A DNA stretch of 38,221 nucleotides from a virus (Duplodnaviria > Heunggongvirae > Uroviricota > Caudoviricetes). The stretch is taken from the IMG/VR virus record IMGVR_UViG_2565956731_000004, positions 1 through 38,221 of that record, one strand, 5' to 3'. The notes under the pieces are model-generated. The model was given only the letters and a program-made list of their open reading frames with translations. It was not told where the DNA came from and made no database searches. This document shows positions 1 to 38,221 of this stretch, one piece after another. Position numbers and translations under genes: made by a program. Every line of letters begins with the position of its first letter. Within the stretch, counting starts at the first letter, position 1.

Positions 1-1005
1 TTAATCCCCCGTGGACACTGCGTGGACACTCACGCCACCTTTCAGCGGATTAAGGGCCACCGCATCCTGCAGGTAATCCGGTGCAAAATGTGCATATGCC
101 ATTGTTTGCTGAATGGTTGCGTGGCCAAGAATCTTCTGAAGCGCAATAATGTTTCCTCCGTTCATCACAAAATGGCTGGCGAACGTATGCCGCAGCACAT
201 GTGCAGCCTGGCCTTTTGGTAAATCGGGCTTAACTCTTTTCAGCGCCAAGCAGAATTCCCGGTACTTCACCTCAAACAAGCCGCCTGTTTCTCTGGTTTT
301 GATCGCCTCACAAACTGCCTGCGAAATTGGCACTGTTCTCTTTCGGCCATTTTTGGTTTCAAGAAACGTCACTCGGTTATGAACTATCTGTTCACCACGG
401 AGCTTACAGGCTTCACTCCAGCGCGCTCCTGTGCTTAAACACAAAAGAGCAACACGCCAGTAATCGCCCTCCAATGTATCGAGCAATAACGCAACTTCCT
501 TTTGTGACAGGAACGCCATTTCTCGTGGAGATACATAAAGAATAGAAATTCCCCTTACCGGATGTTCTGCATCCCAAAGACCTATTTTTTTCAGCACGGT
601 AAACATTCCGGATAACCGATTCATGTACCTGTTAGCAGATGACGGTTTCAATCCATCAGCTATCTTTTGAGAACGCCACGCGATAATTTTCAGCTTATCA
701 AGATCCACAGCCTGCATATCAGCGCCAAGCTCATTGATTATGTTGCGCAGTTGTTTTCGGTCTTCTTCCGCCTTACGCCTGTGTTGACCGTGATACATCC
801 ACCACAACTCAAGCAAATCATTTAGCGTTCGGCGATCACGGTAGCCCTGTATATATTCCCGCTTTTCAGCGTTCGCCATGATGTAGCGTTCAGTGGCCAC
901 CGCTACCGATTTTTTGTCAAATACCTTACGCACGCGCTTTCCCTTGCGTCCGTTCGGCCTGATGTCCAGCAAATAACGACCATCTTCGAGCTTCTTAATT
1001 GACAT
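1..1005 (-). CDS. int: tyrosine integrase (P2 Int-like)
   Basis: 334-codon ORF; ATG is the sixth codon of the track ORF, with GGAGGG 7 nt upstream; C-terminal HVLRHTFASHF...Y tyrosine recombinase signature; at the prophage end, divergent from the repressor/cox switch. Confidence 0.9.
   Translation of the reverse strand: MSIKKLEDGRYLLDIRPNGRKGKRVRKVFDKKSVAVATERYIMANAEKREYIQGYRDRRTLNDLLELWWMYHGQHRRKAEEDRKQLRNIINELGADMQAVDLDKLKIIAWRSQKIADGLKPSSANRYMNRLSGMFTVLKKIGLWDAEHPVRGISILYVSPREMAFLSQKEVALLLDTLEGDYWRVALLCLSTGARWSEACKLRGEQIVHNRVTFLETKNGRKRTVPISQAVCEAIKTRETGGLFEVKYREFCLALKRVKPDLPKGQAAHVLRHTFASHFVMNGGNIIALQKILGHATIQQTMAYAHFAPDYLQDAVALNPLKGGVSVHAVSTGD
11..30. other. candidate attL core, inside the 3' end of int
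   Basis: gtggacactgcgtggacact, itself a tandem GTGGACACT repeat; 17 of 20 identical to 37041..37060 (gtggtcactgcgtggacata). Confidence 0.4.
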
Positions 1006-1101
1006 TGCGAAGCCCTCCAATGAACCGCTCTACAATTTCTCCAGCCTCTTTCCAGCAATAATCAGACCAGACAAAGAGCAGGTCTAACCAGTTTTCTGGC
1101 C

Positions 1102-1422
1102 TTAGCGGGGTGATTTTTGGTTTGTTTCGGTTGAAACCTGATCGCCCTCCGAATCGAAGAAGCCATCAAGAGAGAGAGGCGGAGCAATCTGCCCCGTCGC
1201 AGCATTAGTTTGATTAAACATCACCCAATCCGAATACTTCCGAAAACGAGGATGATTCAAAATCAGGAGTAGCGTTTCTCCAGGTATCATTCTTCCCAAT
1301 ATTTCATAATTTTTGAGATTGTTTTGAGATACCCCTGTCACCTCTTCCATCTCTCTACGTGACAATCCCTCTGCCTCTCGAATCAGGCGAAGTTTTTCTC
1401 CAAGGCTTGATTTATGGATCAT
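1102..1422 (-). CDS. immunity repressor (P2 C-type, HTH)
   Basis: About 106 aa from the internal ATG (MIHKSSLGEKLRLIREAEGLSRREMEEVTGVSQNNL: HTH); sits between int and divergent cox as in P2; start codon choice uncertain (track ORF starts at 1440). Confidence 0.7.
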   Translation of the reverse strand: MIHKSSLGEKLRLIREAEGLSRREMEEVTGVSQNNLKNYEILGRMIPGETLLLILNHPRFRKYSDWVMFNQTNAATGQIAPPLSLDGFFDSEGDQVSTETNQKSPR

Positions 1423-1440
1423 ATGTGATCTAAACTCCAC

Positions 1441-1537
1441 GCTATTGGGTTACATGTAATACAAAACATTCAAATAGCCAAAATAAGCCTATATAAGCCA
1501 TTTTGGGCCATTTGGACGAATTAAGGAGATTACCACA
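1441..1537. promoter_or_regulatory. lysis-lysogeny switch region (divergent promoters and operators)
   Basis: 97-bp AT-rich gap between divergent repressor and cox; three roughly 10-bp-phased repeats ATAGCCA / ATAAGCC / ATAAGCC at 1474..1499 around a TATATA box; AAGGAG RBS for cox at 1523..1528. Confidence 0.45.
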
Positions 1538-1825
1538 ATGAGCGAATCAGAGCTTGAGGGGTTCATTCAGGTAGCACCATATCCACTTGAAGCGGTGCCA
1601 TATCAACTATTTGCCAAGATGATTGGTCGCAAAGAATCAACCGTCAGAACCATGATTGACGCTGCAAAGTTACCAACGATTGACTTTGTGAAACCAGGTT
1701 CAGTGAAGACGCGAGCATCAGAAAACTGGGTATATCTGCCAGCATTTAACGCAGGTATGCGCAAAGCGTTTTTTGATCAGCCGAAAGAACGCCGCGATGC
1801 ATGGTTGTTGTGGCTGGGGCTTTAA
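1538..1825 (+). CDS. cox: Cox-like excisionase / early regulator
   Basis: 95 aa; first rightward gene after the repressor with strong RBS; size and position as P2 Cox. Confidence 0.75.
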   Translation: MSESELEGFIQVAPYPLEAVPYQLFAKMIGRKESTVRTMIDAAKLPTIDFVKPGSVKTRASENWVYLPAFNAGMRKAFFDQPKERRDAWLLWLGL

Positions 1826-8361: not shown

Positions 8362-9321
8362 ATGAAAATTTGTATCGACGACGGCTCCACCAACATCAAG
8401 CTGGCATGGACTGAGAACAGCGAACGCCGCAACGCCATCAGCCCGAACAGCTTCAAGTCGGAATGGTCTGCGCCGTTCGGTGGCTCGCAGCCTGCGAACT
8501 ACATGCTTGATGGCGTGCGCTATGGTTTTGATCCGGTCAGCGATCGCTTTGTCCAGACGACCGACACGCAATACCAGTACAGCGATGTGAATGTAATCGC
8601 CATTCACCACGCGCTGGTCAAATCAGGCATCACACCACAGGAGGTGGATGTGGTTGTCACCCTGCCACTGAGCGAGTATTTCGACACAAACGCACAGCCG
8701 GACATGGCCAACATCAACCGCAAAAAAGCAAACGTCATGCGCCCGGTGGAGTACCAGAACGGCGAAGCATTCACTATCCGTAACGTGCGGGTTATGCCTG
8801 AATCCATTCCGGCTGGCTTTAAGGCACTGGCTGACATGAGTCCGTTTGAATCCCTGCTGATTGTGGATTTAGGCGGAACCACGCTGGATGTGGCAAAGGT
8901 CCAGGGACAACTGGCAGGTATCAGCCAGGTGTTTTGCGATCCACACGTAGGCGTTTCCCTGATGGCCGATGCCGTACTGTCGGTGATGGCCACTAACGGT
9001 ATGCGTACCAGTCACCATATCGCCAATACCATTATCGAACATCGCCACGATGAAGCCTGGCTGCGCCAGCACATCCACAATGACGCGCATTACGACAGCC
9101 TGATGGCGGTTATTCGTGAAAAGGAAGAAACACTGAAACAACGAGTGATCCGCGCGCTGGCGGGTTTTTCGGGTTACGGGCGGGTGATGGTTGTCGGTGG
9201 CGGGGCGGAGATTGTGGCACCCGCTATCCGCGAAGCCTGCGGAGTTAATGCGACTTTCATCGCGGACGGGGTGCCACAGTTTGCTCTGGTTAATGGGCTG
9301 TACGCAATGGACAAGGAGTAA
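8362..9321 (+). CDS. actin-like ATPase, ParM/StbA family
   Basis: 319 aa; N-terminus MKICIDDGSTNIKLAW...ISPNSFK...YQYSDVNVIAIHHAL closely parallels the recalled plasmid R1 ParM N-terminus (MLVFIDDGSTNIKLQW...SPNSFK...WQYSDVNVVAVHHAL); glycine-rich VDLGGTT and VVGGGA motifs. Confidence 0.8.
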   Translation: MKICIDDGSTNIKLAWTENSERRNAISPNSFKSEWSAPFGGSQPANYMLDGVRYGFDPVSDRFVQTTDTQYQYSDVNVIAIHHALVKSGITPQEVDVVVTLPLSEYFDTNAQPDMANINRKKANVMRPVEYQNGEAFTIRNVRVMPESIPAGFKALADMSPFESLLIVDLGGTTLDVAKVQGQLAGISQVFCDPHVGVSLMADAVLSVMATNGMRTSHHIANTIIEHRHDEAWLRQHIHNDAHYDSLMAVIREKEETLKQRVIRALAGFSGYGRVMVVGGGAEIVAPAIREACGVNATFIADGVPQFALVNGLYAMDKE

Positions 9322-9325
9322 ACCA

Positions 9326-9637
9326 ATGACGACACCAACCAGACGGATAAGTTTCTATCTGAAGCCCGCCGCCGTCAAGAACGAAGGCGAAGCATGCGCC
9401 TGGCTGGACAGCCTTACACCAGAAGCCCGCAAAAGCGGCCAACGTGTGGCTTTTCTGGCCGGGCTGGCACTTCTGAAAATGAATCCGGCAGAGGCTTACC
9501 GACTGGCTGCATGGGCTGACGATGAGGCGTTATCAGTGACACAAACCAGGACAGAACGCCCCGCGTCACAGCCAGTACCAACCTCACAGATAACCAGTCG
9601 GATGGCCGGAAATATCAGGGCGTTATTTCCCGAATAA
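9326..9637 (+). CDS. ParR-like small DNA-binding adaptor
   Basis: 103 aa from the ATG 4 nt after the parM-like stop (AAGGAG RBS); RRISFYLKP...LDSLTPEARKSGQRVAFLAGLALL...IRALFPE resembles the recalled R1 ParR pattern (RRTIAFKLNP...LDSIP...AALTAGLAL...LRSLFPKE). Confidence 0.6.
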   Translation: MTTPTRRISFYLKPAAVKNEGEACAWLDSLTPEARKSGQRVAFLAGLALLKMNPAEAYRLAAWADDEALSVTQTRTERPASQPVPTSQITSRMAGNIRALFPE

Positions 9638-10860: not shown

Positions 10861-11907
10861 TCAGGATGTGGGCTGGGTGTCTAACAGTGCGTAAGGGTTA
10901 AAGCGGATCACCTCTTCGCCAAGCCAGTCATTGATGTGCTTCATGGCCTCCATAACGGGCATCAGCTCGTTAATTGCGTAAACCCGCGCTGCCTTCTCCA
11001 CATCACCAAACGCACTTTTTTCGCCCGGCATCGCCCCCATCAGTTGCGGCGGAACGCGGTGCGCAGCCAGCACATCATCACGGGATGCCGCCTTAACATT
11101 CATGAACTCATCCTTTGCGGTGATCTGCTGGAACGGCAAAATTTGCACCCCCTCTTTGCCCCCGTTGGGCGCATGAATGAGCACGTTTTTAAACGCACCA
11201 CCACCACGTGCACCCTGTAGCGTTTCTTTCAGGGAGTCCATGCTTTCGCGGTTTACCTGCGCTGCACCGATGTAGATGATGCACCCGGCGTGGGATCCGT
11301 TGTCGTAATACAGTTTTCTGAACATGTCCGCCGAATGAGACAGGCTGGCCGAGAGTAATGCGCCAAGATATTCCGGCATGCCGTAGATTTCCTGGTTAAT
11401 GTCAGGATTCATCAGGTGGCACACTTTGCCAGGGCGAAACTGAAACGCATCCTTGCCATCCTGCACATACCACCATGATTCAAGATCGCTTCCGCGTCGC
11501 ATGTATTTCGCCAGGGCGTGCCGTAATTTAAGCGGTTCGCCGAGCATATTGCTTCGAAGCTCAAGGAATGCGTTACCGAACACAAACCAGTCCAGCGCCA
11601 GCGCCGAAAAATCCTGCCGGGAAAGCAGCGGGTGCGGAATATAGCAACCGAGCAATACATTGCGCTTAAAGTAAAGCGCAGACTGATGCCAGGACGTTTG
11701 CCGGGCGGCTCTTGCCAGACCGTACCAGTCCACCGGGGTTTCATACCACCGCCCGTTATCAGCACAGTACATATTGTCCAGCAGGTCATGCCCGGTCAGG
11801 CGATAAGGACCATCAAATGTGAATGCACTGAGCGACGATTCTTTCCTGAGCGCATCAGCGAGATCAATGCGTGAACTCATGCGCACTTTTTTATTTTTTC
11901 TGCTCAT
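10861..11907 (-). CDS. Q: portal protein (P2 gpQ-like)
   Basis: 348 aa; size, position and leftward orientation paired with the large terminase as in P2. Confidence 0.85.
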   Translation of the reverse strand: MSRKNKKVRMSSRIDLADALRKESSLSAFTFDGPYRLTGHDLLDNMYCADNGRWYETPVDWYGLARAARQTSWHQSALYFKRNVLLGCYIPHPLLSRQDFSALALDWFVFGNAFLELRSNMLGEPLKLRHALAKYMRRGSDLESWWYVQDGKDAFQFRPGKVCHLMNPDINQEIYGMPEYLGALLSASLSHSADMFRKLYYDNGSHAGCIIYIGAAQVNRESMDSLKETLQGARGGGAFKNVLIHAPNGGKEGVQILPFQQITAKDEFMNVKAASRDDVLAAHRVPPQLMGAMPGEKSAFGDVEKAARVYAINELMPVMEAMKHINDWLGEEVIRFNPYALLDTQPTS

Positions 11908-17369: not shown

Positions 17370-17693
17370 GTGAGCACCATTCAAACAGGGATCACAGAGC
17401 AGGTTATTGCATGGCTCTTTGACCACCTGCCAACGGTGTATGCAGTGGGCGCGGCAGTCAGCATTTCCGCGCTGATGAGTCTTTATGACGGACGAACACT
17501 GGTTCAGACCGTAACGGGATCGCTGGCGTGCGGCGTTCTTGCCATGGCCGTGGCCGGGTCGTTGCGCTTCTTCGGGTTTCCTGAAGATGCTGTGACGTTT
17601 ATCGGCGCATCAATCGGTTTTATGGGTGCAGAGAAAGCACGCGACAAGGTTATTGCGGCCTTTAATCGCAGGGTGAAGGAGAAGGACGAATGA
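17370..17693 (+). CDS. Y: holin (P2 gpY-like position)
   Basis: About 107 aa from the GTG at 17370 (GGGGGGAG RBS); three hydrophobic helices; first gene of the lysis cassette. Confidence 0.55.
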   Translation: MSTIQTGITEQVIAWLFDHLPTVYAVGAAVSISALMSLYDGRTLVQTVTGSLACGVLAMAVAGSLRFFGFPEDAVTFIGASIGFMGAEKARDKVIAAFNRRVKEKDE

Positions 17694-18082
17694 GCAACAC
17701 ATTTAAATTCAGCAGCCGGAGCGAAAAGAATTTGCAGGGCGTAAATCCTGATCTGGTGAAAGTGACCCGACGGGCACTGGAAATCTCGGAAGTGGATTTT
17801 GGTATCACCGAAGGGTTGCGCAGCCGTTACCGCCAGAAGCAACTTGTGGCCACGGGTAAGAGCCAGACCATGAACAGCCGCCACCTTACGGGGCATGCCG
17901 TGGATGTTGTGGCTTATATCGGCAGCTAGGTGTCATGGGAATGGCCGCTGTACGAAAAAATCGCAGCCGCATTCAGACAGGCCAGCCGGGAACTGAATAT
18001 TCCGGTGGAATGGGGCGGCGACTGGAAGACCCTGAAAGACGGACCGCATTTTCAGTTACCACACGGAGCCTATCCGGCATGA
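17690..18082 (+). pseudogene. endolysin, peptidase M15 family, interrupted by an in-frame TAG at 17927..17929
   Basis: N-terminal 79 codons end at TAG; the same frame continues open for 50 further codons (VSWEWPLYEKIAAAFRQASRELNIPVEWGGDWKTLKDGPHFQLPHGAYPA) to TGA at 18080..18082; SRHLTGHAVDV metal-binding motif of M15 peptidases lies just upstream of the TAG. Confidence 0.7.
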
Positions 18083-18486
18083 AGCTCTGGCCCACGCTGG
18101 GCGTCGCTTTTCTTCTGATTGCCGCATGGGGAACATCCATGCGTCTGTCGTGGTCGCTGGGCCGGGAGAACGCCAGAAACGAAGCGCAGGCCAGCACCCT
18201 GAAAAGTACCGTCGACACCCTGAATATCATCAGCACCGGGGTACAGGATATGCAGCAGGTGCTGGCGCAACTCCGCGTGGAAAATCAACAGCGAAATCAG
18301 GACGGAGAGGCCAGACGTGAACAGCTACGCAACGATATTGCAAAAGATGAATGCGCCCACGCTTTGCCTGACGCTCGTTTTACTGACAGGTTGCGCAGGC
18401 ACGCAGAACGCGCCACGGCCAGCGCCGTCAGTCCGGCTTATACCGCAGACGCTGACCATACCGGTAACGCCTCCCCCATTCCCTGA
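18079..18486 (+). CDS. lysB: inner-membrane spanin (LysB/Rz-like)
   Basis: ATG overlaps the endolysin-frame TGA (ATGA); N-terminal TM helix MKLWPTLGVAFLLIAAW followed by a coiled-coil-like region. Confidence 0.65.
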   Translation: MKLWPTLGVAFLLIAAWGTSMRLSWSLGRENARNEAQASTLKSTVDTLNIISTGVQDMQQVLAQLRVENQQRNQDGEARREQLRNDIAKDECAHALPDARFTDRLRRHAERATASAVSPAYTADADHTGNASPIP

Positions 18487-18637
18487 CACTCCCACATGGG
18501 GAAATCTCGGTATATGGGGCGACCGCCTTCTGGATGCACTGGAAACCTGTAACGCGGATAAACGGGCCATTGAATTACTGGAACAGCGCAGGCTGCAAAG
18601 ACTGAACAACGAGGACAACAACCATGCTGAAAACTGA
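18347..18637 (+). CDS. lysC: outer-membrane lipoprotein spanin (LysC/Rz1-like), embedded in lysB in another frame
   Basis: Signal peptide with lipobox MNAPTLCLTLVLLTGC; proline-rich; overlapping arrangement typical of Rz/Rz1. Confidence 0.6.
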   Translation: MNAPTLCLTLVLLTGCAGTQNAPRPAPSVRLIPQTLTIPVTPPPFPDTPTWGNLGIWGDRLLDALETCNADKRAIELLEQRRLQRLNNEDNNHAEN

Positions 18638-22069: not shown

Positions 22070-24241
22070 ATGAGTACCACAACACGAAAATTTAAAACCA
22101 TTATCACTGATACTGGTGCCAAAAAATTAGCTCAGGCAGCCGCGCCAGATGGTAATCCTGTCCGCCTGACTCACATGGCCGTGGGCGACGGTGGCGGCAC
22201 GTTGCCCACACCAGACAGTAAGCAGACCCGTCTGGTGCATGAGGTGTGGCGACATACTGTTAATCGCGTCATCCTGGACGCAACACATCAGAACCGCATT
22301 ATTGCGGAGCTGGTTATTCCTCCTGAAACGGGCGGATTCTGGATCCGGGAAATTGGTGTATTTGATGAGCACGGCGATTTGATCGCGGTGGGCAATACTG
22401 CCGAAAGTTACAAGCCAACCGTTGCCGAAGGATCCGGACGTGCACAAACATTTCGCACCATTCTGACCGTATCCAGCACTGCCACCGTGGCGCTTACCGT
22501 GGATAACACCATGGTTATGGCCACAGTGGATTACGTGAATGACAAACTGAAAGAACATGAACAGTCACGACGTCACCCGGACGCCTCGCTGACCGCAAAA
22601 GGCTTTGTTCAACTCAGTAGCGCCACTAACAGCGATTCTGAAACGCTGGCTGCAACGCCGAAAGCGGTTAAGGCCGCGTATGACCTGGCTAACGGAAAAT
22701 ATACCGCTCAGGACGCCACGACGGCACGAAAAGGGATAGTCCAGCTCAGCAGTGCAACCAACAGCACGTCTGAAACGCTGGCAGCGACACCAAAAGCGGT
22801 TAAGGCGGTAATGGATGAAACGAACAAGAAAGCCCCATTAAACAGCCCGGCACTGACCGGAACGCCAACAACACCAACTGCACGACAGGGAACGAATAAT
22901 ACCCAAATCGCAAGCACGGCTTTCGTTATGGCCGCGATTGCCGCACTTGTAGATTCGTCACCTGACGCACTGAACACGCTGAACGAGCTGGCGGCGGCGC
23001 TGGGCAACGACCCGAATTTTGCGACCACCATGACTAACGCGCTTGCGGGTAAGCAACCGAAAGATGCCACCCTGACGGCGCTGGCCGGGCTTGCTACTGC
23101 GGCAGACAGGTTTCCGTATTTTACGGGGAATGATGTTGCCAGTCTGGCAACCCTGACAGAAGTCGGGCGGGATATTCTTGCGAAATCGACCGTTGCCGCT
23201 GTTATCGAATACCTCGGTTTACAGGAAACGGTAAACAGGGCTGGTAACGCCGTTCAGCGTTCCGGCGATAAAATGACCGGAGAACTGAAAATTGGCACGA
23301 TGAATGCGCTGCGAATTTTTAATGATGCCTTCGGTCTTATTTTCCGTCGTTCAGAAGAGTCCCTTCATTTCATCCCTACGGTTGAAGGACAAGGCGAAAA
23401 CGGTGATATCGGCCCATTAAGGCCATTCGCTATAAATCTAAGAACAGGTGCTATATCTGTCAGCCACGGGGCCAAAATTGATGGTGGGCTGGCGCTTGGT
23501 ACGGATAACGCACTGGGCGGTAATTCAATTACTCTCGGAGATAACGATACCGGTATTAAACAGGGCGGCGACGGTGTCCTTTTATTCTATTTAAATGGAC
23601 AACTGGCATTTGGGCTTCAACCCGCATCTGCTGATTTTTATAAGCGGGTTGCATATACTCATCAGGGAATAGTTCCTGAAGGAAGTGGCGCATTTGCAGA
23701 CCAGTTGAATAATGCCACCGCGCCTTTTGTTCAGACACGGTTTGCCTGGAATCCCGCTCCTGGTGGTCATTACGTGCCGATAGCTAAGGGCCTGTCTATT
23801 CGCAATGGACAGGGGTATCCGGGTGCTGTCAGCTTTGGCTATTTACTGACAGAACAAATGGGATTTCCAATTCCATGTGTTCATATGCGTGGCGATGGCG
23901 GTAATGATGTTTTATGGCAGTTTAACCCAAACGACAAATCTTTTATTTCACCGGGTTCTCTTGTTGCGGGCGGAGTACGTTATAACACCGATGGAAATAT
24001 ATTTGGCGGGTGTTGGGGTTCAAATTTAGCTGATTATCTTAATAGCACATATGTAAGAGACATTCGACTTGGAAGCGCAGAATCAATATCAGCATGGCGA
24101 GGTCCTGGTTACTGGGATACTTCTGGATATGTTCTGACCGCAGCCGGAAACAGCAACACCGATGAATTTATTGATACATTAACCAGAAGGCCTATTCAGA
24201 AGTTGATTGGTGGGACATATTATAACGTTGTGAGTATTTGA
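22070..24241 (+). CDS. H: tail fibre protein H (constant N-terminal part plus currently expressed variable C-terminal part)
   Basis: 723 aa; tandem protein repeat ([26 protein letters not shown] twice); the invertase crossover site lies inside the gene at 23202..23227. Confidence 0.9.
23202..23227. other. DNA-invertase crossover site (hix/gix/cix-like), left
   Basis: TTATCGAATACC-TC-GGTTTACAGGAA; 23 of 26 identical to the reverse complement of the site at 26216..26241; matches the recalled Hin/Gin half-site pattern (TTxxxxAAACC / GGTTTxxxxAA). Confidence 0.8.
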
Positions 24242-24242
24242 C

Positions 24243-24770
24243 ATGATGCATTTAAAAAACATTAAAGCAGGGAACCCAAAAACACCTGAACAATACCAGT
24301 TAACCAAAAAAGCTGGAGTGGTCTGGCTTTATACTGAAGATGGTAAAAACTGGTACGAAGAACAAAAAAACTTTCAACCAGATACTATAAAAATTGCATA
24401 CGATAAAAATAATGTGATTGTTACCGTAAGCAAAGATGTTTCAACTATTAACCCGGAAGGTTTAAGTGTTGTTGAAGTATCCGATATTACGGCAAATCGT
24501 CGCGCAGACAATAACGGAAACTGGATGTTTCTGGATGGTAAAGTAGTAAAGCGGGAATATACAAAACAGGAGCTGCAACAGCAGGCAGAGTTACAAAAAG
24601 CCACTTTGCTTTCCGAAGCGGAGTCTGTGATTCAACCGCTGGAACGTGCTGTCAGGCTGAATATGGCAACTAATGAGGAACGCGCACGACTGGAGTCATG
24701 GGAACGCTACAGTGTTCTGGTCAGCCGTGTGGATACGGCAAATCCTGAATGGCCACAAAAGCCTGAATAA
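24243..24770 (+). CDS. G: tail fibre assembly chaperone (P2 gpG-like), currently expressed copy
   Basis: 175 aa immediately after H; N-terminal half nearly identical to the inverted copy. Confidence 0.8.
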
Positions 24771-24775
24771 AAATT

Positions 24776-24795
24776 AAGGCCCGATAGCGGGCCTT
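24776..24795. terminator. bidirectional hairpin between the convergent chaperone genes
   Basis: AAGGCCCG-atag-CGGGCCTT. Confidence 0.6.
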
Positions 24796-24798
24796 GTC

Positions 24799-25332
24799 TC
24801 ATTCTGGTTGTTCCGGGAATGTTACAGGAAGAACAGAGGTATCTGTGACATCAACCTGCTGCATGTATAACATCCAGTTAATGAGTCTTTGCCTGTCTGA
24901 ATCGCTGATAATTCCCAGCGCAAGCTGTGTTTGCCAGCACTGCGTTTCCTCTCTGGCCTGTCGCAGCAAAATCTGTTTCTGAATTTCAGCCAGTTGACGT
25001 AGTTCTTCATCAGTCCGGGGGCGTTTCATGACCTTGCCATCCTGAAACACCCAGTCACCGAGAATATCGGCCCGGCGATTCGCTGTCGTGTCGGGTAATT
25101 CGACAACGCTCATTCCTTCCGGGTTAATAGACGACACATCTTTTTCAATATAGCGAATGATACCTCTGTCATCGTAAGCGATTTTTAGTGTGTCTGCCTG
25201 AAAGGCTTTTTGTGCCTCATACCAGTTCTGACCATCTTCAGCGTAAAGCCAGATAACACCATGTCTCTTTGTTAACTCATACTGTTCCAGTGTTTTAGCA
25301 TTACCCGCTTTTATGTTCTTTAAGTGCATCAT
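24799..25332 (-). CDS. alternative tail fibre assembly chaperone (G'), silent orientation
   Basis: 177 aa; [11 protein letters not shown]... N-terminus shared with G, divergent C-terminal half. Confidence 0.75.
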   Translation of the reverse strand: MMHLKNIKAGNAKTLEQYELTKRHGVIWLYAEDGQNWYEAQKAFQADTLKIAYDDRGIIRYIEKDVSSINPEGMSVVELPDTTANRRADILGDWVFQDGKVMKRPRTDEELRQLAEIQKQILLRQAREETQCWQTQLALGIISDSDRQRLINWMLYMQQVDVTDTSVLPVTFPEQPE

Positions 25333-25333
25333 A

Positions 25334-26233
25334 TTAAACGCTCGCTACATTATACCAGGTGCCATTTATATACTTTTGAACGGGTCTGTAATAAACGCCC
25401 GCTATATTATCGGCAGAGTTGGACCCTGTATCCTGAACATTAATACCAGACAATACATGACCTGACGGGCACTGGAAATTCCATGTTTGCCAGTTGTTCA
25501 CACCATGATATTGCTGTGAACCAAGACGAACATCTTTCACATAGCGGGAATCAAAATTCCCCCAGTTACTGGGTTGTATCTGACCGTTAACAGCAAATAT
25601 TACTGAGTTATCTGTATTTCGCTGACTATAGAAATGCCAGCCTGAATCATCACCAAGCTCTGCAACAGTTGGTCTTGATGAAGTGCCCCATAAATTAAAC
25701 CCTACGTTCTTCGTGGAGTTGTTGGAGCTGGATAGCGTGAATTTTTTACCATCCCCAGCCTGAATATTTTTAAAAGCAATAGCCACTCCATTCTGAAAGC
25801 GGAATACACGCTGACTATTAGCATAAACATCAAGAATACCGTCTCCATTCTGTTTAAATCCGGTATCATTATCACCAAGAACAATAGAGCTACCACCTAA
25901 CGCATTCGTCGTACCGATCCCCACACTGCCATTAATGACAGCATTAACAAGAATATTTAGTGCATCCCATTTCAGCGTCATCAGATCTTTTGTTGTGGTA
26001 CTTTGTTTGCTTCTCCATTTGAAATATTCATTGCCGTTGTCGCCTGTTTCAAACCACATGTATGAATCAGTATCGCTGTCGGCATCATTTTTAAATCCAA
26101 TCTTTGCCCAGTCAGTATTTCGAATCCAGGCAAGGATTGAGTCGTTTTCAAAAGTAAGTCCACCGGACAAGGTATCGCCTGTCTTTTGAACGGCGTTAGC
26201 AGCCTTGTTTACCGTTTCCTGTAAACCGAGGTT
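25334..26233 (-). CDS. alternative tail-fibre variable C-terminal segment (H'), no own start, silent orientation
   Basis: Open frame runs from the right crossover site; begins ...[31 protein letters not shown], which matches the H constant-variable junction ([17 protein letters not shown]); shares LGG-SI-LGDNDTG-KQ-GDG motif with the expressed variable part. Confidence 0.75.
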   Translation of the reverse strand, partial: NLGLQETVNKAANAVQKTGDTLSGGLTFENDSILAWIRNTDWAKIGFKNDADSDTDSYMWFETGDNGNEYFKWRSKQSTTTKDLMTLKWDALNILVNAVINGSVGIGTTNALGGSSIVLGDNDTGFKQNGDGILDVYANSQRVFRFQNGVAIAFKNIQAGDGKKFTLSSSNNSTKNVGFNLWGTSSRPTVAELGDDSGWHFYSQRNTDNSVIFAVNGQIQPSNWGNFDSRYVKDVRLGSQQYHGVNNWQTWNFQCPSGHVLSGINVQDTGSNSADNIAGVYYRPVQKYINGTWYNVASV

Positions 26234-26241
26234 TTAGATAA
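26216..26241. other. DNA-invertase crossover site (hix/gix/cix-like), right
   Basis: TTCCTGTAAACC-GA-GGTTTTAGATAA; inverted partner of 23202..23227. Confidence 0.8.
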
Positions 26242-26295
26242 TGGCCGTTTCCGGCCTGCATGGCATGATTTGCGCTTTTGGACGGGAGATTCAGC

Positions 26296-26883
26296 GTGCT
26301 GATTGGCTATGTAAGGGTATCAACAAATGACCAGAATACAGACCTGCAACGAAACGCTCTTGTTTGTGCAGGATGTGAACAAATATTTGAAGATAAATTA
26401 AGCGGGACAAAGACAGACCGACCGGGATTAAAACGCGCTTTAAAGCGCCTTCAAAAAGGTGACACGCTGGTTGTCTGGAAACTGGATCGCCTCGGGCGAA
26501 GCATGAAACATCTGATTTCTCTCGTCGGGGAACTACGGGAGCGAGGAATTAATTTTCGCAGTCTGACCGACAGCATAGATACATCTTCTCCAATGGGGCG
26601 TTTTTTCTTCCACGTGATGGGTGCCCTGGCTGAAATGGAACGTGAATTAATTGTTGAACGTACACTGGCCGGACTGGCGGCAGCACGCGCACGGGGGCGC
26701 ACAGGCGGACGTCGACCGAAGCTGACAAAAGAACAGCATGAGCAAATAGCAAGGCTGATCAAAAACGGGCACGACAGAAAACAACTGGCAATAATTTACG
26801 GCATTGGTATATCGACGATTTATCGTTACCACCCCGCAGGAGAATCAAGCGGAACAATAGAGAAGAGTCAGGAAACAAAATAA
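26296..26883 (+). CDS. serine DNA invertase (Hin/Gin/Cin/Pin family)
   Basis: About 195 aa from the GTG at 26296 (GGGAG RBS); VLIGYVRVSTNDQNTDLQ catalytic-serine N-terminus; C-terminal HTH (IYGIGISTIYRY); adjacent to the invertible segment. Confidence 0.9.
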   Translation: MLIGYVRVSTNDQNTDLQRNALVCAGCEQIFEDKLSGTKTDRPGLKRALKRLQKGDTLVVWKLDRLGRSMKHLISLVGELRERGINFRSLTDSIDTSSPMGRFFFHVMGALAEMERELIVERTLAGLAAARARGRTGGRRPKLTKEQHEQIARLIKNGHDRKQLAIIYGIGISTIYRYHPAGESSGTIEKSQETK

Positions 26884-30804: not shown

Positions 30805-31317
30805 TCAGCCAAGCCCAAGCGCGGAACGGATGCGGTCAGGCACAATGTCCTTGCCGTCCTTCCGGTAGATGTGGTTCAACAGGTCGATTTCCCACAGCGG
30901 GCGATCGTTAACGCTCAGCTTGTAGTAGGTGTTTTTGACAGCGTAAGTGTGTGATGTGGCTTCGCCCTGTTTGGCTTCCCCCATATCAATTTCCGTCACA
31001 CGTCCGCGCATCTCAATTTCATACAGATCGCTTTCTGCATCGGTGTAGTATTCACCCGCAAAACGCAGCAGCGTGCCGTCAATCGTGCCGCCATATTTAA
31101 GGAACAGCGCACGAACAGCTCCCCCCATGACAAAGCTCGCATCAAGCGCGGAGTCGTCCAGACCGAGATCAATACTTACTGCCCCCATCATGCCACCACC
31201 CCGGTAGCTGTCGGTTTTGCGCGTCAGCTTAGGCAGAGTGACGGATGTCACTTTACCCACTTCGTTTTCACCATCCACAAACAACGTAAAAAAGCGAAGA
31301 TGTTTTGGTACAGCCAT
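30805..31317 (-). CDS. FII: tail tube protein FII
   Basis: 170 aa; directly downstream of the sheath gene. Confidence 0.9.
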   Translation of the reverse strand: MAVPKHLRFFTLFVDGENEVGKVTSVTLPKLTRKTDSYRGGGMMGAVSIDLGLDDSALDASFVMGGAVRALFLKYGGTIDGTLLRFAGEYYTDAESDLYEIEMRGRVTEIDMGEAKQGEATSHTYAVKNTYYKLSVNDRPLWEIDLLNHIYRKDGKDIVPDRIRSALGLG

Positions 31318-32501
31318 CAGGCACCTCCCAGCACCGCAAATGCGGGACCAAAGAATTCATCAGTAAACGTCTGGTAAAGCTCCATGTCTTCCAGCGGGGG
31401 AACGGGCGTATATTTGTAGCGAATACGCACACGCCCCTGACGTAAATCCGTGGTGCCGTTATCCACCACGTCATACCAGCACTCCGCGCCAATCAGTTTC
31501 CCGGCAGTAACCAGCGAATCCAGTTTTGCCCTGATGGCGCTGATAACATCCTTCACGTTCGCAGGCGTCAGTGGACTGTCGATGGTTTCAAACTGCGCTT
31601 CCGCAATTGAATCAGCCAGCACCTGTGCGGTTCGGGTATACACCTCAAAGATGTAGGCGTTCGTTTCCGGTGTGCGGTTGCCCCAGAAGCGGAACCCGTT
31701 GCGACGAATAATGGTCGTGATTTCTTTGTTGTTGAGGCTGTTGGCATCGCTGTCTTCGGCCTGCAACGACCAGAACACATGCCTCGACATCCCCAGCACA
31801 TTTTTAACCGGAACGTTGGACAGTGATTTGTGCCAGCCCTGCTCATGGTCAATGTACGCACGAAGGCCGCACGCATAGGCAGGCGCGGGGAACGTTTCGT
31901 TTTTGCCACTTTTCGGGTTGTAGGCGATGAAGTCCGGCCATAAGAGCATCACCTCACGTTCGTTGAATTTCTGGCGGTAGGTAATCGCATCAGCCATCGT
32001 GTCACAGCCATGACATGAGGCATACACAAACGCGCGCAGTTTACCCGCAATCACGCACAGGGATTTTGTCACCGCCTCCGTGTCCAGCTCCGGCGCGGCC
32101 AGAATACGCGGACGGTATCCGATGCTTTCATCCTGCTCTGCAACAAGCAGCGCATACATCCCCGTATAGCTGCCGTCAGATTCAGAACCACCGATAACCA
32201 GTTGATCCTGCGTCTTTCCGTCTTCTTCTTTGTGTTCAGCCACGCGAACGACGATCACCTTTGTGCTCACCTGGTCTGCGATGGCCTTAAGCGCACGATA
32301 AAGCGTCCCCGTTGTCCCGCATTTTCCCAGCACGTCATTGACGCGGGTCAGCAGTGTGGGCTTGTTCAGCGGGAACAGCTTCGCGTCCGCATCATCCGCC
32401 GTTGCCACGATACCGATAACGCTGGAATCAACATCGTTAATCGCTGTTACCAGGTCGGTATTTTCCGTAACACGGGCACCATGAAAACGAGTTTCACTCA
32501 T
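31317..32501 (-). CDS. FI: tail sheath protein FI
   Basis: 394 aa; recognisable similarity to recalled P2 FI (RAF-Y, QGWHK-LSNV, GFRFWGNRT, YTRTAQV, YTPVPPLE). Confidence 0.9.
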   Translation of the reverse strand: MSETRFHGARVTENTDLVTAINDVDSSVIGIVATADDADAKLFPLNKPTLLTRVNDVLGKCGTTGTLYRALKAIADQVSTKVIVVRVAEHKEEDGKTQDQLVIGGSESDGSYTGMYALLVAEQDESIGYRPRILAAPELDTEAVTKSLCVIAGKLRAFVYASCHGCDTMADAITYRQKFNEREVMLLWPDFIAYNPKSGKNETFPAPAYACGLRAYIDHEQGWHKSLSNVPVKNVLGMSRHVFWSLQAEDSDANSLNNKEITTIIRRNGFRFWGNRTPETNAYIFEVYTRTAQVLADSIAEAQFETIDSPLTPANVKDVISAIRAKLDSLVTAGKLIGAECWYDVVDNGTTDLRQGRVRIRYKYTPVPPLEDMELYQTFTDEFFGPAFAVLGGA

Positions 32502-32658: not shown

Positions 32659-33768
32659 ATGACCGACACCACCATGCAATTGCTCAGTCAGGGCACAGAC
32701 CCCGTGAAAATGCCGGATTTTGATATTCTCGCGGAGGGTAAAACGCTGTCAGGCGTGGCAGAGCGCCTGATGAGCCTGTCACTGACCGACAACCGGGGAT
32801 TTGAAGCAGACCAGCTCACCATCACGCTGGATGATGCGGATGGTCAGTTGCAGCTACCGCCACGGGGCGCGCGCCTGACGGTTCTCATTGGCTGGAAAGG
32901 AGAACCGCTGACAGAAAAAGGCACTTACATTGTTGATGAAATCGCTCACGAAGGACCGCCGGACAGGCTGACTGTTTCAGCCAGAAGTGCAGATTTTCGG
33001 GATGAATTTAACGTTAAACGTGAGGTGTCCTGGCATGATGTGACCGTTGAACGTGTGGTATCCGCCATCGCTCATCGGTACGGCCTGAAACCGCAAATCA
33101 GCGAAATGCTGATGGATATCGAAATCGACCACGCCGACCAGACTGAAGAAAGCGACATGTCCTTCCTTACGCGCATGGCGGAAATGCTGGGCGCAATCAC
33201 CACGGTAAAAAGCGGCAATCTGTTATTCATCATGCCAGGTGGTGGCGTGAACGCACAGGGCCAGCCGTTGCCCTCGTTCGCCATTACACGCAGCAGCGGC
33301 GATCGCCATCAGTTCCGCATTGCTGACCGCGAGGCGTATACGGGGGTACGCGCCTACTGGCTTGATCTTAATTACGGGAAAAAGAAAAAAGTCAGCGTGA
33401 AACGCCGCAAACCGCCAAAACCCAAAAAGGAGAAAAGCAGCAGCCGTGAAGGTGATTATATGGAAGGCGCGGAAGGCAATGTGTTTGTGTTACGCAAGAC
33501 TTATCAGAACGAGCAGGCAGCAAGACGCGCAGCGGCGGCAAAGTGGCAGCAGCTACAACGCGGAGCCGCATCATTCTCCATCACACTGGCACGCGGACGC
33601 GCAGAACTCTACCCCGAAATGCATGGCACGGTAACAGGATTTAAAAGCGAGATTGATAATCAGGACTGGATTATTGCAAAAGTCGAGCACACCGTTGATA
33701 ACAGCGGCTTTACCACGCAGCTTGAGCTTGAAGCAAAAATCCCGGAATGGATAGCGGAAACAGAATGA
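32659..33768 (+). CDS. D: tail protein D (late control gene D-like)
   Basis: 369 aa from the ATG with GGGAGGG RBS (MTDTTMQLL...); divergent from FI rather than downstream of U. Confidence 0.85.
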   Translation: MTDTTMQLLSQGTDPVKMPDFDILAEGKTLSGVAERLMSLSLTDNRGFEADQLTITLDDADGQLQLPPRGARLTVLIGWKGEPLTEKGTYIVDEIAHEGPPDRLTVSARSADFRDEFNVKREVSWHDVTVERVVSAIAHRYGLKPQISEMLMDIEIDHADQTEESDMSFLTRMAEMLGAITTVKSGNLLFIMPGGGVNAQGQPLPSFAITRSSGDRHQFRIADREAYTGVRAYWLDLNYGKKKKVSVKRRKPPKPKKEKSSSREGDYMEGAEGNVFVLRKTYQNEQAARRAAAAKWQQLQRGAASFSITLARGRAELYPEMHGTVTGFKSEIDNQDWIIAKVEHTVDNSGFTTQLELEAKIPEWIAETE

Positions 33769-33916: not shown

Positions 33917-34975
33917 TTAAAAATTATTTATTATGTGTTCAGCTAAATGATCATACTCACCAGCCATCTCATTCATTAGTTCTACCTGATTAACTGCCCA
34001 TTGCCCCCGCCCACGAAGAGCATTCGTTGGCCTAACTCGAGACAAATAGCGAATAGGTATATTTTGAATAATACTATCAGGAGCCATAACGTTGAGGTCC
34101 TCAATCTTTCCAACTGGTTCATAATCAGTAAAATCAGGAACCGCGTTGTAAGATGAAATCTGTGAAAGCTGAGGAAGCATTTTTTCCTCTATCGCTTTTC
34201 TTATTGAACGGTGATGAACTGCATCTGCACCAACCTCTTGTTTAACATCATTTTGCTTTCTCGTATCAAAACCATTGAATATCCAACCGCCAAATTTAGG
34301 CATCCCTTTCTGAGATATAATATTATCTCGTGGGTTACCTGATAGATATCTTTCCTTGCCCTGCTCCCAATCACGTATAAATGATGGCAACATCTCACCA
34401 ATCAGCCCTACACAATATGAAGAGAATAAATCAGGTGTGCATGGAACTAAAAAATAGTCCGAACAGTACAATGACGATCTAACAAGCGTATTGAATGAGG
34501 GAGGTAAATCTATTAGGACATAATCATAAATAACATCATTTTTCTCTGATGCTTTTTTTGTTATCAAATCTGGCAAAATAAAACGATATAACCCTGCGCC
34601 ACTTATAACATCAGTGCCGACATTTAAAATATCTGAAAATGTATTAAGCCAAAAGTCTCCAGGAACAATATGCAAAACGCCTGCATCTGTCTTAGTCTTA
34701 GGTTCTGTTGTATAAACTTCACCTATAGTATTTTGTTGTATGTAAGGCAATGCAAATGCTTTAACCGTTTTTCCAAAAGGGAAATCATCTGAAGGTTCCA
34801 ATAACTCTGAAAATTCCTCATCACCAATACATGCAATTGAGAGATTACACTGGGGATCAAAGTCTATTAATAAAACACTTTTTCCTTTATCTGCTAGCGA
34901 TACTGCAAGATTCCAAATTATAGTTGTTTTACCAACACCACCTTTGTTATTAAAAATCGATATAGTTTTTGTCAT
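33917..34975 (-). CDS. ParA/MinD-family P-loop ATPase with about 100-aa C-terminal extension, AT-rich gene
   Basis: 352 aa; deviant Walker A KGGVGKTT near the N-terminus; LLIDFDPQCN and DYVLIDLPP motifs; flanked by AT-rich intergenic DNA; composition clearly AT-richer than the tail genes. Confidence 0.8.
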   Translation of the reverse strand: MTKTISIFNNKGGVGKTTIIWNLAVSLADKGKSVLLIDFDPQCNLSIACIGDEEFSELLEPSDDFPFGKTVKAFALPYIQQNTIGEVYTTEPKTKTDAGVLHIVPGDFWLNTFSDILNVGTDVISGAGLYRFILPDLITKKASEKNDVIYDYVLIDLPPSFNTLVRSSLYCSDYFLVPCTPDLFSSYCVGLIGEMLPSFIRDWEQGKERYLSGNPRDNIISQKGMPKFGGWIFNGFDTRKQNDVKQEVGADAVHHRSIRKAIEEKMLPQLSQISSYNAVPDFTDYEPVGKIEDLNVMAPDSIIQNIPIRYLSRVRPTNALRGRGQWAVNQVELMNEMAGEYDHLAEHIINNF

Positions 34976-35686: not shown

Positions 35687-35827
35687 ATGTCGCAAAAATC
35701 GCTTACGGCCATCACGTTCTGCGTGACGGTAATCCTCATCATCTGGATGCTGCACGGTTCGCTGTGTGAAATACGGATGAGCTTCTGGGGAGCGGAGTTT
35801 GCGGCGTTCTTACAGTGTAAGCAGTAA
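35687..35827 (+). CDS. Hok/Gef-family type I toxin (46 aa)
   Basis: MSQKSLTAITFCVTVILIIWMLHGSLCEIRMSFWGAEFAAFLQCKQ; single TM helix plus SLCE and AAFL motifs as in recalled HokA; AAGGAG RBS; below the ORF-track size cut-off. Confidence 0.6.
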   Translation: MSQKSLTAITFCVTVILIIWMLHGSLCEIRMSFWGAEFAAFLQCKQ

Positions 35828-36062: not shown

Positions 36063-36260
36063 ATGACGCAAAATGTACGATGCAAAAATTGCAACAAACT
36101 ACTTGCCCGCGCCTCATTTCACTACATTGAAATAAAATGTCCGCGCTGCAAAACACTTAACCAGATAACGAGAGCCATTGAGCCCCCCACACACATGAGG
36201 AGTTATGACCGTGGGGATCGCAATCCAGCACCAACCAGCACATACACCGGAACACACTAA
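36063..36260 (+). CDS. Com-like zinc-ribbon protein (Mu Com family)
   Basis: About 65 aa from the ATG at 36063 (AAGAGG RBS); VRCKNCNKLLARASFHYIEIKCPRCKTLN matches recalled Mu Com (IRCKNCNKLLFKA...HIEIRCPRCK); 3' end overlaps the methyltransferase start by 56 nt. Confidence 0.6.
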   Translation: MTQNVRCKNCNKLLARASFHYIEIKCPRCKTLNQITRAIEPPTHMRSYDRGDRNPAPTSTYTGTH

Positions 36261-36996
36261 GGTTTATCAGACTGACAATGCCACGCTCTGTCGTGGGAAT
36301 GCGCTGGAAATATTGCCGCTGATTGAGCCAGAAAGTATTGATGCCTTAATCACTGACCCGCCTTACAGTTCGGGCGCGACACACAAGGCCGGACGCACCA
36401 ACCAGGGCAGCCACGCAAAATATCTGAACGGCGAGAACCTTCATCGCTTTGATGGGTTTGCGGGTGAAAACATGGATGCCCGTTCGTGGGCTTACTGGAC
36501 ACAATTATGGATGGCACAGGCACACCGCGCAGTCAGGCCGGGCGGTTATGCCCTGGTATTTACTGACTGGCGACAACTGCCAGCTTTAACCGATGCGTTT
36601 CAGGCCAGCGGTTTTACATGGCGTGGAATCATTGCGTGGAACAAAGGAAGGGGGTCACGAACACCCCATACGGGGTATTTCCGGCATCAGTGCGAATACA
36701 TCGTCTGGGGCAGTAAAGGCCATTTAGGTAAATCGCCTTCGGGACCGTTCGACGGCTGCATGACGTTCCCGGTTATCCCATCAAAGAAAATGCACCCGAC
36801 CGGAAAACCAGAAGAACTTATGGCAGAACTGGTCAGGACTGCGAATAGTGGTGGAACAGTCCTTGATCCTTTTATGGGATCGGGAACAACGGGTGTTGCA
36901 GCACTGAAAGCAGGGCGCAAATTTATTGGTATAGAAACCAGTGATCATTATTTTGATATAGCAACACAACGGCTCAAAACGGCGATCGAACCATAA
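36205..36996 (+). CDS. DNA methyltransferase (N6-adenine/N4-cytosine class, DPPY motif)
   Basis: 263 aa; catalytic DPPY (LITDPPYSS) near the N-terminus and AdoMet motif DPFMGSGTTG near the C-terminus; GAGG RBS. Confidence 0.85.
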   Translation: MTVGIAIQHQPAHTPEHTKVYQTDNATLCRGNALEILPLIEPESIDALITDPPYSSGATHKAGRTNQGSHAKYLNGENLHRFDGFAGENMDARSWAYWTQLWMAQAHRAVRPGGYALVFTDWRQLPALTDAFQASGFTWRGIIAWNKGRGSRTPHTGYFRHQCEYIVWGSKGHLGKSPSGPFDGCMTFPVIPSKKMHPTGKPEELMAELVRTANSGGTVLDPFMGSGTTGVAALKAGRKFIGIETSDHYFDIATQRLKTAIEP

Positions 36997-37225: not shown

Positions 37226-38221
37226 ATGATACAACCTATTTCCGGCCCTCCTCCTGGGCAACCACCAGGTCAGGGAGATAACCTGCCGTCTGGCGCGGGC
37301 AATCAGCCTTTATCCAGTCAGCAACGTACTTCGCTGGAAAGCTTAATGACGAAAGTGACCTCACTGACGCAACAACAAAGAGCAGAACTGTGGGCGGGTA
37401 TCAGGCACGATATTGGTCTGTCGGGAGATTCACCGCTGCTTTCGCGTCACTTCCCTGCCGCTGAGCATAATCTGGCGCAACGTCTGTTGGCCGCGCAGAA
37501 AAGCCATTCTGCCCGCCAGCTTTTAGCGCAATTAGGGGAGTATTTACGTCTGGGGAATAATCGTCAGGCGGTCACGGATTATATCCGTCATAACTTTGGT
37601 CAGACGCCGCTGAATCAGCTCTCACCGGAGCAATTAAAAACCATTCTCACCCTGTTGCAGGAAGGGAAGATGGTTATTCCGCAACCACAGCAGCGCGAGG
37701 CGACCGACCGTCCTTTATTACCGGCGGAGCACAATGCGCTCAAACAGCTGGTGACCAAACTTGCGGCAGCAACGGGGGAACCCAGCAAACAGATCTGGCA
37801 ATCGATGCTGGAACTTTCCGGGGTGAAAGATGGCGAGTTAATTCCAGCGAAACTGTTTAACCATCTGGTGACCTGGCTACAGGCGCGTCAGACGCTAAGC
37901 CAGCAAAATACGCCGACACTGGAATCACTACAGATGGCGCTAAAACAACCTTTAGATGCCAGTGAACTGGCGGCGTTATCGGCATATATCCAGCAAAAAT
38001 ATGGCCTTTCTGCGCAATCATCGCTTTCTTCTGCCCAGGCCGAGGATATTCTTAACCAGCTTTATCAACGGCGGGTTAAAGGGATTGAGCCGCGTGATAT
38101 GCAACCGCTGCTTAATCCTTTTCCACCGATGATGGACACGTTGCAAAATATGGCAACGCGTCCCGCGCTGTGGATACTGTTAGTCGCGATTATCCTGATT
38201 CTGGTCTGGCTGGTTCGTTAA
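37226..38221 (+). CDS. flk: host tail-anchored membrane protein, recalled as the flagellar regulator Flk
   Basis: 331 aa; MIQPISGPPPGQPPGQGDN... N-terminus and single C-terminal TM anchor (LWILLVAIILILVWLVR) match my recollection of enterobacterial Flk; ordinary host-like composition. Confidence 0.65.
   Translation: MIQPISGPPPGQPPGQGDNLPSGAGNQPLSSQQRTSLESLMTKVTSLTQQQRAELWAGIRHDIGLSGDSPLLSRHFPAAEHNLAQRLLAAQKSHSARQLLAQLGEYLRLGNNRQAVTDYIRHNFGQTPLNQLSPEQLKTILTLLQEGKMVIPQPQQREATDRPLLPAEHNALKQLVTKLAAATGEPSKQIWQSMLELSGVKDGELIPAKLFNHLVTWLQARQTLSQQNTPTLESLQMALKQPLDASELAALSAYIQQKYGLSAQSSLSSAQAEDILNQLYQRRVKGIEPRDMQPLLNPFPPMMDTLQNMATRPALWILLVAIILILVWLVR

Follow-up and report, generated by a model that had tools for sequence, protein, structure and literature searches.

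A natural amber mutation at a Dcm site in the endolysin gene of a P88-like Escherichia coli prophage

The stretch of DNA analysed here (38,221 nucleotides, called the window below) contains a complete P88-like prophage of Escherichia coli whose endolysin gene carries a genuine amber mutation at codon 80. Probably, this amber comes from deamination of 5-methylcytosine at a Dcm site that is a recurrent mutational hotspot, and the prophage is predicted to be lysis-defective. The feature is a further amber of the Dcm-hotspot kind, in an endolysin family already known; it is ordinary recurrent mutational damage and not a new biological feature.

The endolysin gene starts within an ATGA overlap with the end of the holin gene (17690..17693) and its reading frame is stopped by a TAG after 79 codons. 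Directly 3' of the stop is a GTG (17930), and the same frame stays open for 50 codons up to a TGA that overlaps the ATG of the i-spanin gene, again as ATGA (18079..18082). The stop after 79 codons and the open frame behind it, up to the spanin overlap, were both part of a first-pass annotation, and both are confirmed on the sequence and its translation (Table 1). An open run of 50 codons after a stop is not rare by chance, with a probability of (61/64)^50 or ∼0.09, so it is homology that decides whether the frame is interrupted. In a tblastn comparison the read-through of the gene aligns with the P88 endolysin over 130/130 residues with 99.2% identity, and the sole difference is the stop. The codons after the TAG had been taken for the natural C-terminal part of the enzyme, and indeed they are identical to the P88 C-terminus, while the Peptidase_M15_4 match spans the stop. 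Aligned as DNA, the three intact homologues from PhiR44_2, P88 and E. coli CREC-591 all have CAG at codon 80, which gives CAG, Gln80, as the ancestral codon; 389–391 of the 393 bases of the gene match, with only 2–4 differences besides the amber. Since the intact homologues have CAG, the amber was made by a single C→T change. The equivalent base is C in 119 of 119 matches in IMG/VR, and the wild-type protein of 130 aa is present on at least 1000 contigs. The truncated product of 79 aa has been deposited at NCBI as ETF35166.1 / WP_024009189.1 [Escherichia coli], which is an exact match. A natural short or split gene, or programmed readthrough, was rejected, as the stop is conserved in no homologue and all 119 IMG/VR copies have the wild-type C. 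The earlier suggestion of a single nonsense mutation therefore stands: the gene is interrupted by a genuine amber (Gln80, CAG→TAG), and no homologue naturally ends at this position.

Table 1. Coordinates of the lysis genes, the endolysin residues and the Dcm codons compared in other genes (positions in the window)
Feature	Position	Strand	Remark
Holin (Phage_holin_3_1, family 3), intact	17370..17693	+	Pfam 70.9 bits; 107/107 aa, 99% identical to P88 holin
Truncated endolysin ORF	17690..17929	+	ATG at 17690, 79 sense codons, then amber stop
Zinc ligand His65	17882..17884	+	Upstream of stop; equivalent of ChiX His68
Zinc ligand Asp72	17903..17905	+	Upstream of stop; equivalent of ChiX Asp75
Former Dcm site, CCAGG now CTAGG	17926..17930		Mutated base is the inner cytosine, the one that Dcm would methylate
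Amber codon TAG, formerly CAG (Gln80)	17927..17929	+	C→T transition at 17927
Untranslated endolysin remainder	17930..18082	+	50 codons and TGA (18080..18082); open part 17930..18079
Catalytic Asp117	18038..18040	+	Downstream of TAG; equivalent of ChiX Asp120
Third zinc ligand His120	18047..18049	+	Downstream of TAG; equivalent of ChiX His123
i-spanin (DUF2570-type), intact	18079..18486	+	135/135 aa, 95.6% identical to P88 gp32
o-spanin (Rz1-like LysC), intact	18317..18637	+	PF23793 LysC, 51.2 bits; lysC annotated in CREC-591
Portal codon 73 equivalent	within 10861..11907	-	Gene intact in window
Sheath codon 77 equivalent	within 31317..32501	-	Gene intact in window
gpD codon 125 equivalent	within 32659..33768	+	Gene intact in window

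A difference of one base is the typical form of a sequencing or assembly error, in which case the true sequence would be CAG and the gene intact. The TAG allele is also rare. Allele-specific BLAST (a 55-mer query in which each 28-mer seed spans T17927) found it neither among the 1,315 copies of the complete E. coli genomes nor in the phage records, and exact-pattern scans found none in IMG/VR (vs at least 119 C alleles), in the GTDB representatives or in the JGI metagenomes. These absences fit an error, but the same T is present in the NCBI assembly and in Logan contigs of the window's haplotype that were assembled independently from several samples. The window is 100% identical to the E. coli assembly GCA_000507685.1 (NCBI scaffold KI669372.1, 4.04 Mb) and to the Logan contig SRR958768_186, although SRR958768 is possibly the read set behind the NCBI assembly. 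Its TAG haplotype is found in several samples, of which 3 share the contig, with 5 similar places collapsed. Moreover, the TAG lies inside long contigs (15–37 kb) of four further samples (SRR7894948, SRR29200030, SRR21404590 and ERR4163073), it stands on at least four other haplotypes, and analogous ambers at Dcm sites occur in other genes in both NCBI and Logan assemblies. An error at the consensus level that recurs at one base is implausible, and a miscalled CAG is hardly credible as an explanation. The first-pass annotation had left room for an error; the identical TAG in the NCBI assembly, in separately assembled read sets and on the further haplotypes speaks against it. A laboratory amber strain as the source of the TAG was considered as well, and rejected.

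It is worth noting that truncated proteins in the databases are a poor guide to such alleles. Among the first ten matches to the 79-aa protein, 4 are wild-type contigs that end inside codon 80. Most of the proteins that exact look-ups of truncated sequences turned up are gene calls that a contig end cuts short, and some of these stand in NCBI nr without the word 'partial'. Raw counts of exact truncated proteins were rejected as a control, as every truncation length exists as a 'partial' call at a contig end, and such counts are unusable as pseudogene counts. Because of these partial calls the contigs themselves were inspected for the comparisons below.

The predicted loss of function follows from where the stop falls in the fold. 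In Pfam the read-through is a Peptidase_M15_4 domain (PF13539, 45.7 bits vs a cut-off of 25) at residues 58–123, across the stop. The reconstructed protein of 130 aa aligns end to end (to residue 129/130) with solved L-Ala-D-Glu endopeptidases, matching 23ri, ChiX (5opz) and 8q2g at E ∼1e-48 to 1e-46 and the T5 enzyme EndoT5 (2mxz) at E ∼1e-22. For ChiX, cleavage of peptidoglycan between L-Ala and D-Glu has been shown, the zinc ligands are His68, Asp75 and His123, and Asp120 is essential, the D120A mutant being inactive in vitro and in vivo (PMC5778951). In the alignment His68/Asp75/Asp120/His123 of ChiX correspond to H65/D72/D117/H120 of the endolysin, with an offset of 3 residues. The truncated protein includes the His-x6-Asp zinc motif (H65, D72), but the Asp-x-x-His motif with the catalytic acid and the third zinc ligand is encoded after the stop, at 18038..18049, and is missing from the translated part. 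Besides D117 and H120, ∼40% of the fold is lost with the truncation. By descent the gene is a member of the M15/LAS endolysin family, but its product is incomplete. With D117 and H120 lost, a dead enzyme is predicted; the 79-residue product is probably inactive, and the prophage would be unable to degrade murein in a non-suppressing host, giving a lysis-defective phenotype.

The gene might still be functional by amber suppression, by leaky readthrough, or by re-initiation at the GTG to give two complementing fragments. A TAG derived from CAG is exactly what supE corrects, as Gln is inserted and the product is the exact wild-type protein; the GTG at 17930 directly follows the stop; and endolysins are catalytic, so small amounts might suffice. 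But there is no tRNA gene within the window, and no good Shine-Dalgarno sequence ahead of the GTG. The in-frame stop is conserved in no homologue, hence a recoding signal has not evolved. In sup0 hosts, classical ambers in endolysin genes prevent lysis, and natural isolates seldom carry suppressors. Taken with these points, retained function is very unlikely, and a predicted lysis defect is the preferred reading.

The rest of the lysis cassette is intact (Table 1). The DUF2570 match of the i-spanin is weak (20.5 bits, below the cut-off of 26.6) and the name is taken from annotated homologues; the gene has its own GGAG 9 nt upstream (18066..18069). The o-spanin ORF is partly embedded in the i-spanin gene, and its RefSeq homologue is annotated from the equivalent of position 18368. 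The neighbourhood consists of P2-type late genes in the order tail protein X (gpX), holin, endolysin, i-spanin/LysC and gpR. By megablast the region belongs to the P88-like phages (genus Xuanwuvirus, Peduoviridae), with 99.1% identity to Escherichia phage PhiR44_2 and ∼98% to P88, and 1,101 of the 5,426 complete E. coli genomes have related copies (1,315 places). Induction of E. coli K88 yielded P88 (PMC5285337), so the intact endolysin allele belongs to a viable phage. When all 53 P88 proteins were compared by tblastn, the replication, packaging, head, tail and lysis genes were all full length and free of stops, except for the endolysin. Once the amber is reverted, 27/27 core ORFs are intact, the endolysin stop being the only internal one, and integrase, HTH repressor, Cox and Ogr are all present. 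Cryptic prophages characteristically have more than one inactivating lesion or have lost lytic functions by deletion, and this is not seen here. The window thus holds a complete P88-like (Xuanwuvirus, P2-type) E. coli prophage whose only lesion is evidently recent; it is not a prophage in decay.

Several other parts of the window deserve mention. The immunity and integration module (1..1825) differs from that of P88 and resembles the arrangement of PhiR44_2: the integrase is only 44% identical to the P88 integrase, the repressor is an HTH_3-type protein of 112 aa (1102..1440, minus strand), and a Cox protein of 95 aa is encoded at 1538..1825. The divergence of this regulatory region from P88 is typical of the mosaicism of P2-like phages. 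As in P88, the prophage has genes for a ParM/StbA-type actin-like segregation ATPase and for a partner protein (Plasmid_stab_B; 8362..9637), which P2-type phages that integrate do not usually have. The tail-fibre segment (22070..26883) is invertible, with a DNA invertase gene at 26296..26883 and inverted repeats of 85 nt that are 81% complementary (23202..23286 and 26157..26241). The two tail-fibre assembly genes are convergent (24243..24767 on the plus strand, 24802..25332 on the minus strand), and the minus strand also encodes an alternative C-terminus for the fibre. Between gpD and ogr lies a gene for a ParA/MinD-like P-loop ATPase of 352 aa (AAA_31, 104 bits; 33917..34975, minus strand); P88 has no gene at this position, and the ATPase gene would seem to be cargo that occupies a variable part of the prophage. 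A DNA methyltransferase gene (PF01555, 117 bits, DPPY motif; 36205..36996, plus strand), which may be part of either the prophage or the flanking host DNA, lies between a hok-like gene (35687..35824) and an ORF of 331 aa (37226..38221) that reaches the right end of the window. This is the only methyltransferase in the window, and it is of the N6/N4 type, not the C5 (Dcm) type. The 331-aa ORF has no significant Pfam match; provisionally we take it to be the host gene flk.

The base that changed is the inner cytosine of a Dcm site, the codon context having gone from AGC CAG GTG to AGC TAG GTG. The whole window holds 69 CCWGG sites; in the endolysin gene, the site at codon 80 was the only one. 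In this gene 50 nonsense changes are possible in one step, 16 of them transitions, and only the Q80 amber is in a Dcm context. In lacI, the amber hotspots lie at the second C of CCAGG, where G:C→A:T changes are ∼10-fold over-represented and attributed to deamination of 5-methylcytosine to thymine (PMC12606429), and the very-short-patch repair by Vsr offsets this deamination only partly (PMC2715241). The most likely course of events is as follows. The inner C of the endolysin CCAGG would be methylated by the Dcm enzyme of the host, and the 5-methylcytosine at 17927 would deaminate to thymine and evade very-short-patch repair. The resulting CAG→TAG change would leave a 79-residue product that has two zinc ligands and lacks Asp117 and His120. 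In a non-suppressing host the prophage would then assemble virions and fail to degrade the cell wall. A classical E. coli Dcm amber hotspot would also account for finding the same change independently on several prophage backgrounds.

Whether the amber arose once or several times was approached with an alignment of 3,043 nt, from gpL to gpS, in which 67 of the 74 copies have C and 7 have T. Between TAG haplotypes, 43–72 of the 3,043 positions differ. At the same time, the TAG copy L009 has 0 differences from the wild-type copy L043 in this alignment, and another TAG copy, L004, has 1 difference from the wild-type L053. The whole overlap of L009 and L043 is 11,550 bases long and contains 4 differences, one of them the amber. 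A parsimonious reading of these distances suggests at least five independent origins of the endolysin TAG. It could instead be argued that the amber arose once and was spread between prophage backbones by homologous recombination or gene conversion, with no hotspot involved. P2-like prophages do recombine, the endolysin gene is highly conserved and could hide small patches that move, and the tracts that TAG haplotypes share around the T are 47–376 nt long, so up to 376 nt in some pairs. In other pairs, however, the shared tract is only 47–122 nt, and L009 and L004 essentially match their wild-type relatives save for the T. The rarity of the allele also makes it a very poor candidate for a donor that recombines often, and the same pattern is found at three other Dcm targets and not at non-Dcm targets. 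We consider a single origin very improbable, and recurrent mutation at the Dcm site the better account.

As a control within the gene, the truncated products of six other nonsense codons that can be reached by a transition were looked up and their contigs inspected. The independent nonsense events at these non-Dcm codons number 0 for Q49, 1 each for Q59, W83, W85 and Q97, and 3 for W112. This gives 7 events over 9 non-Dcm nucleotide sites (0–2 each), whereas the one Dcm site has 5 (Poisson P = 0.0012, or 0.008 without the event of the window itself). All event counts are lower bounds, drawn from exact-sequence look-ups, and backgrounds were judged over ∼1 kb. The Trp112 codon (GAC TGG AAG; 18023..18025) contains no Dcm site, and here G335A was found on two backgrounds and G336A on one, more nonsense events than at the other non-Dcm targets examined. 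As W112 has three independent events without a Dcm site, recurrence alone is no proof of a hotspot.

The core genes of the prophage have 26 in-frame Dcm amber targets, of which four were examined. For portal W73 (CCTGG→CCTAG), 9 of 10 among the matches listed have TAG, on 7 distinct 1-kb backgrounds, and one has TGA, from a change at the adjacent unmethylated G. For sheath Q77 (CCAGG→CTAGG), TAG is found in 10 of 10 among the matches listed, on at least 7 backgrounds, and for gpD W125 (CCTGG→CCTAG) in at least 6 places, on 6 backgrounds. These portal, sheath and gpD ambers are carried by related P88-like prophages in many other samples. No amber was found for gpS Q124, where the look-up returned only partial proteins from contig ends and had low sensitivity, given a 211-aa start (MDKAF...) vs the usual 214-aa start. 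Over all the sites, Dcm and non-Dcm targets differ with a one-sided Mann-Whitney P = 0.023, or 0.054 without the endolysin site. An excess was not seen in standing variation. Among ∼120 wild-type loci, transition polymorphism was found at 0 of 8 Dcm positions vs 16% of the other C/G positions in one test, and at 4 of 43 Dcm positions vs 18% elsewhere in another; power was low and the comparison is confounded by constraint. Constraint on the Dcm sites that survive, together with very-short-patch repair, may explain the missing excess, although this argument is post hoc. Altogether the data are consistent with loss-of-function mutations that arise repeatedly, and do not last, in silent prophage genes, mostly where methylation of cytosine by the host would make an amber codon easy to form.

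The first-pass annotation had seen in the lysis defect a step toward domestication. Domestication is a well-documented fate of prophages, a prophage defective in lysis is unable to lyse its host, and several natural nonsense alleles of the endolysin exist (Q59, Q80, W83, W85, Q97 and W112). One could thus imagine that endolysin loss is selected because it shields lysogens from being killed on spontaneous induction, with recurrence as the mark of that selection. But the prophage has no second lesion (27/27 core ORFs are intact), and its holin is intact. Holin triggering alone kills an induced cell, even without an endolysin. Each of the amber alleles is a rare tip variant, and ambers at Dcm sites in portal, sheath and gpD are at least as frequent, which means that the endolysin is not preferentially hit and that there is no sign of selection. 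The domestication reading of the amber is not supported, and adaptive inactivation seems improbable next to recurrent mutation in an otherwise complete prophage.

Another way to read the in-frame Dcm sites in late genes of P88-like prophages is as semi-reversible mutational 'fuses', a contingency switch driven by host methylation in place of simple decay. In the off step, CCAGG would change to CTAGG by deamination at an elevated rate. Vsr-dependent very-short-patch mis-repair has been reported to stimulate the opposite change, CTAGG→CCAGG (PMC2715241), and in the on step such mis-repair would restore the gene. If this were true, lysogen populations would continually generate and recover prophages that are defective in lysis or assembly. 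Only the forward direction (ambers at Dcm sites) has been seen, across four genes, and a switch of this kind is decidedly a long shot.

The closest parallel to the mutation is the set of lacI amber hotspots (Coulondre, Miller et al. 1978, as reviewed in PMC12606429), where likewise the inner C of CCAGG becomes T and an in-frame CAG becomes TAG. Compared with the remaining nonsense targets in its gene, the change is over-represented ∼6-fold in the endolysin here and ∼10-fold in lacI. In contrast to the laboratory selection used with lacI, the endolysin amber is seen in natural and clinical genomes and in a late gene of a prophage, and here it would presumably depend on methylation. With ChiX of Serratia marcescens and its M15/LAS relatives the enzyme shares the His/Asp/His zinc triad, the catalytic Asp and a single domain of ∼130 aa; unlike ChiX, the gene in the window is cut after residue 79, leaving the catalytic Asp and the third ligand untranslated. 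ChiX is also a domesticated secretion factor, whereas the protein of the window is a phage lysis enzyme in a holin-endolysin-spanin cassette. The endolysins of P88 (YP_009113074.1), PhiR44_2 (XSB42719.1) and E. coli (WP_000072327.1) have the same residues save for codon 80 and the same gene order, but are intact, with CAG at this codon. Laboratory lambda prophages with R or S ambers have a stop in a lysis gene, assemble virions without releasing them and are rescued by a suppressor host. The prophage described here is similar in having a single lysis-gene amber in an otherwise complete prophage, and the same phenotype is predicted for it; the differences are that its amber is spontaneous and from a natural isolate, and that the phenotype is a prediction.

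For the annotation, this means that the endolysin is to be marked as a pseudogene (Q80am), and that WP_024009189.1 (79 aa) should not count as an M15 protein that is short by nature. The prophage is to be scored as structurally complete and predicted to be lysis-defective, which matters for predictions of induction and phage release in this strain. More generally, the hotspot rule found with lacI in 1978 can be seen in public genomes. The first nonsense lesion to hit an E. coli prophage tends to fall at an in-frame Dcm site, and such sites offer a simple, testable predictor of where decay starts. Finally, some caution is advisable with recurrent identical pseudogene alleles, which need not mean selection or shared descent.
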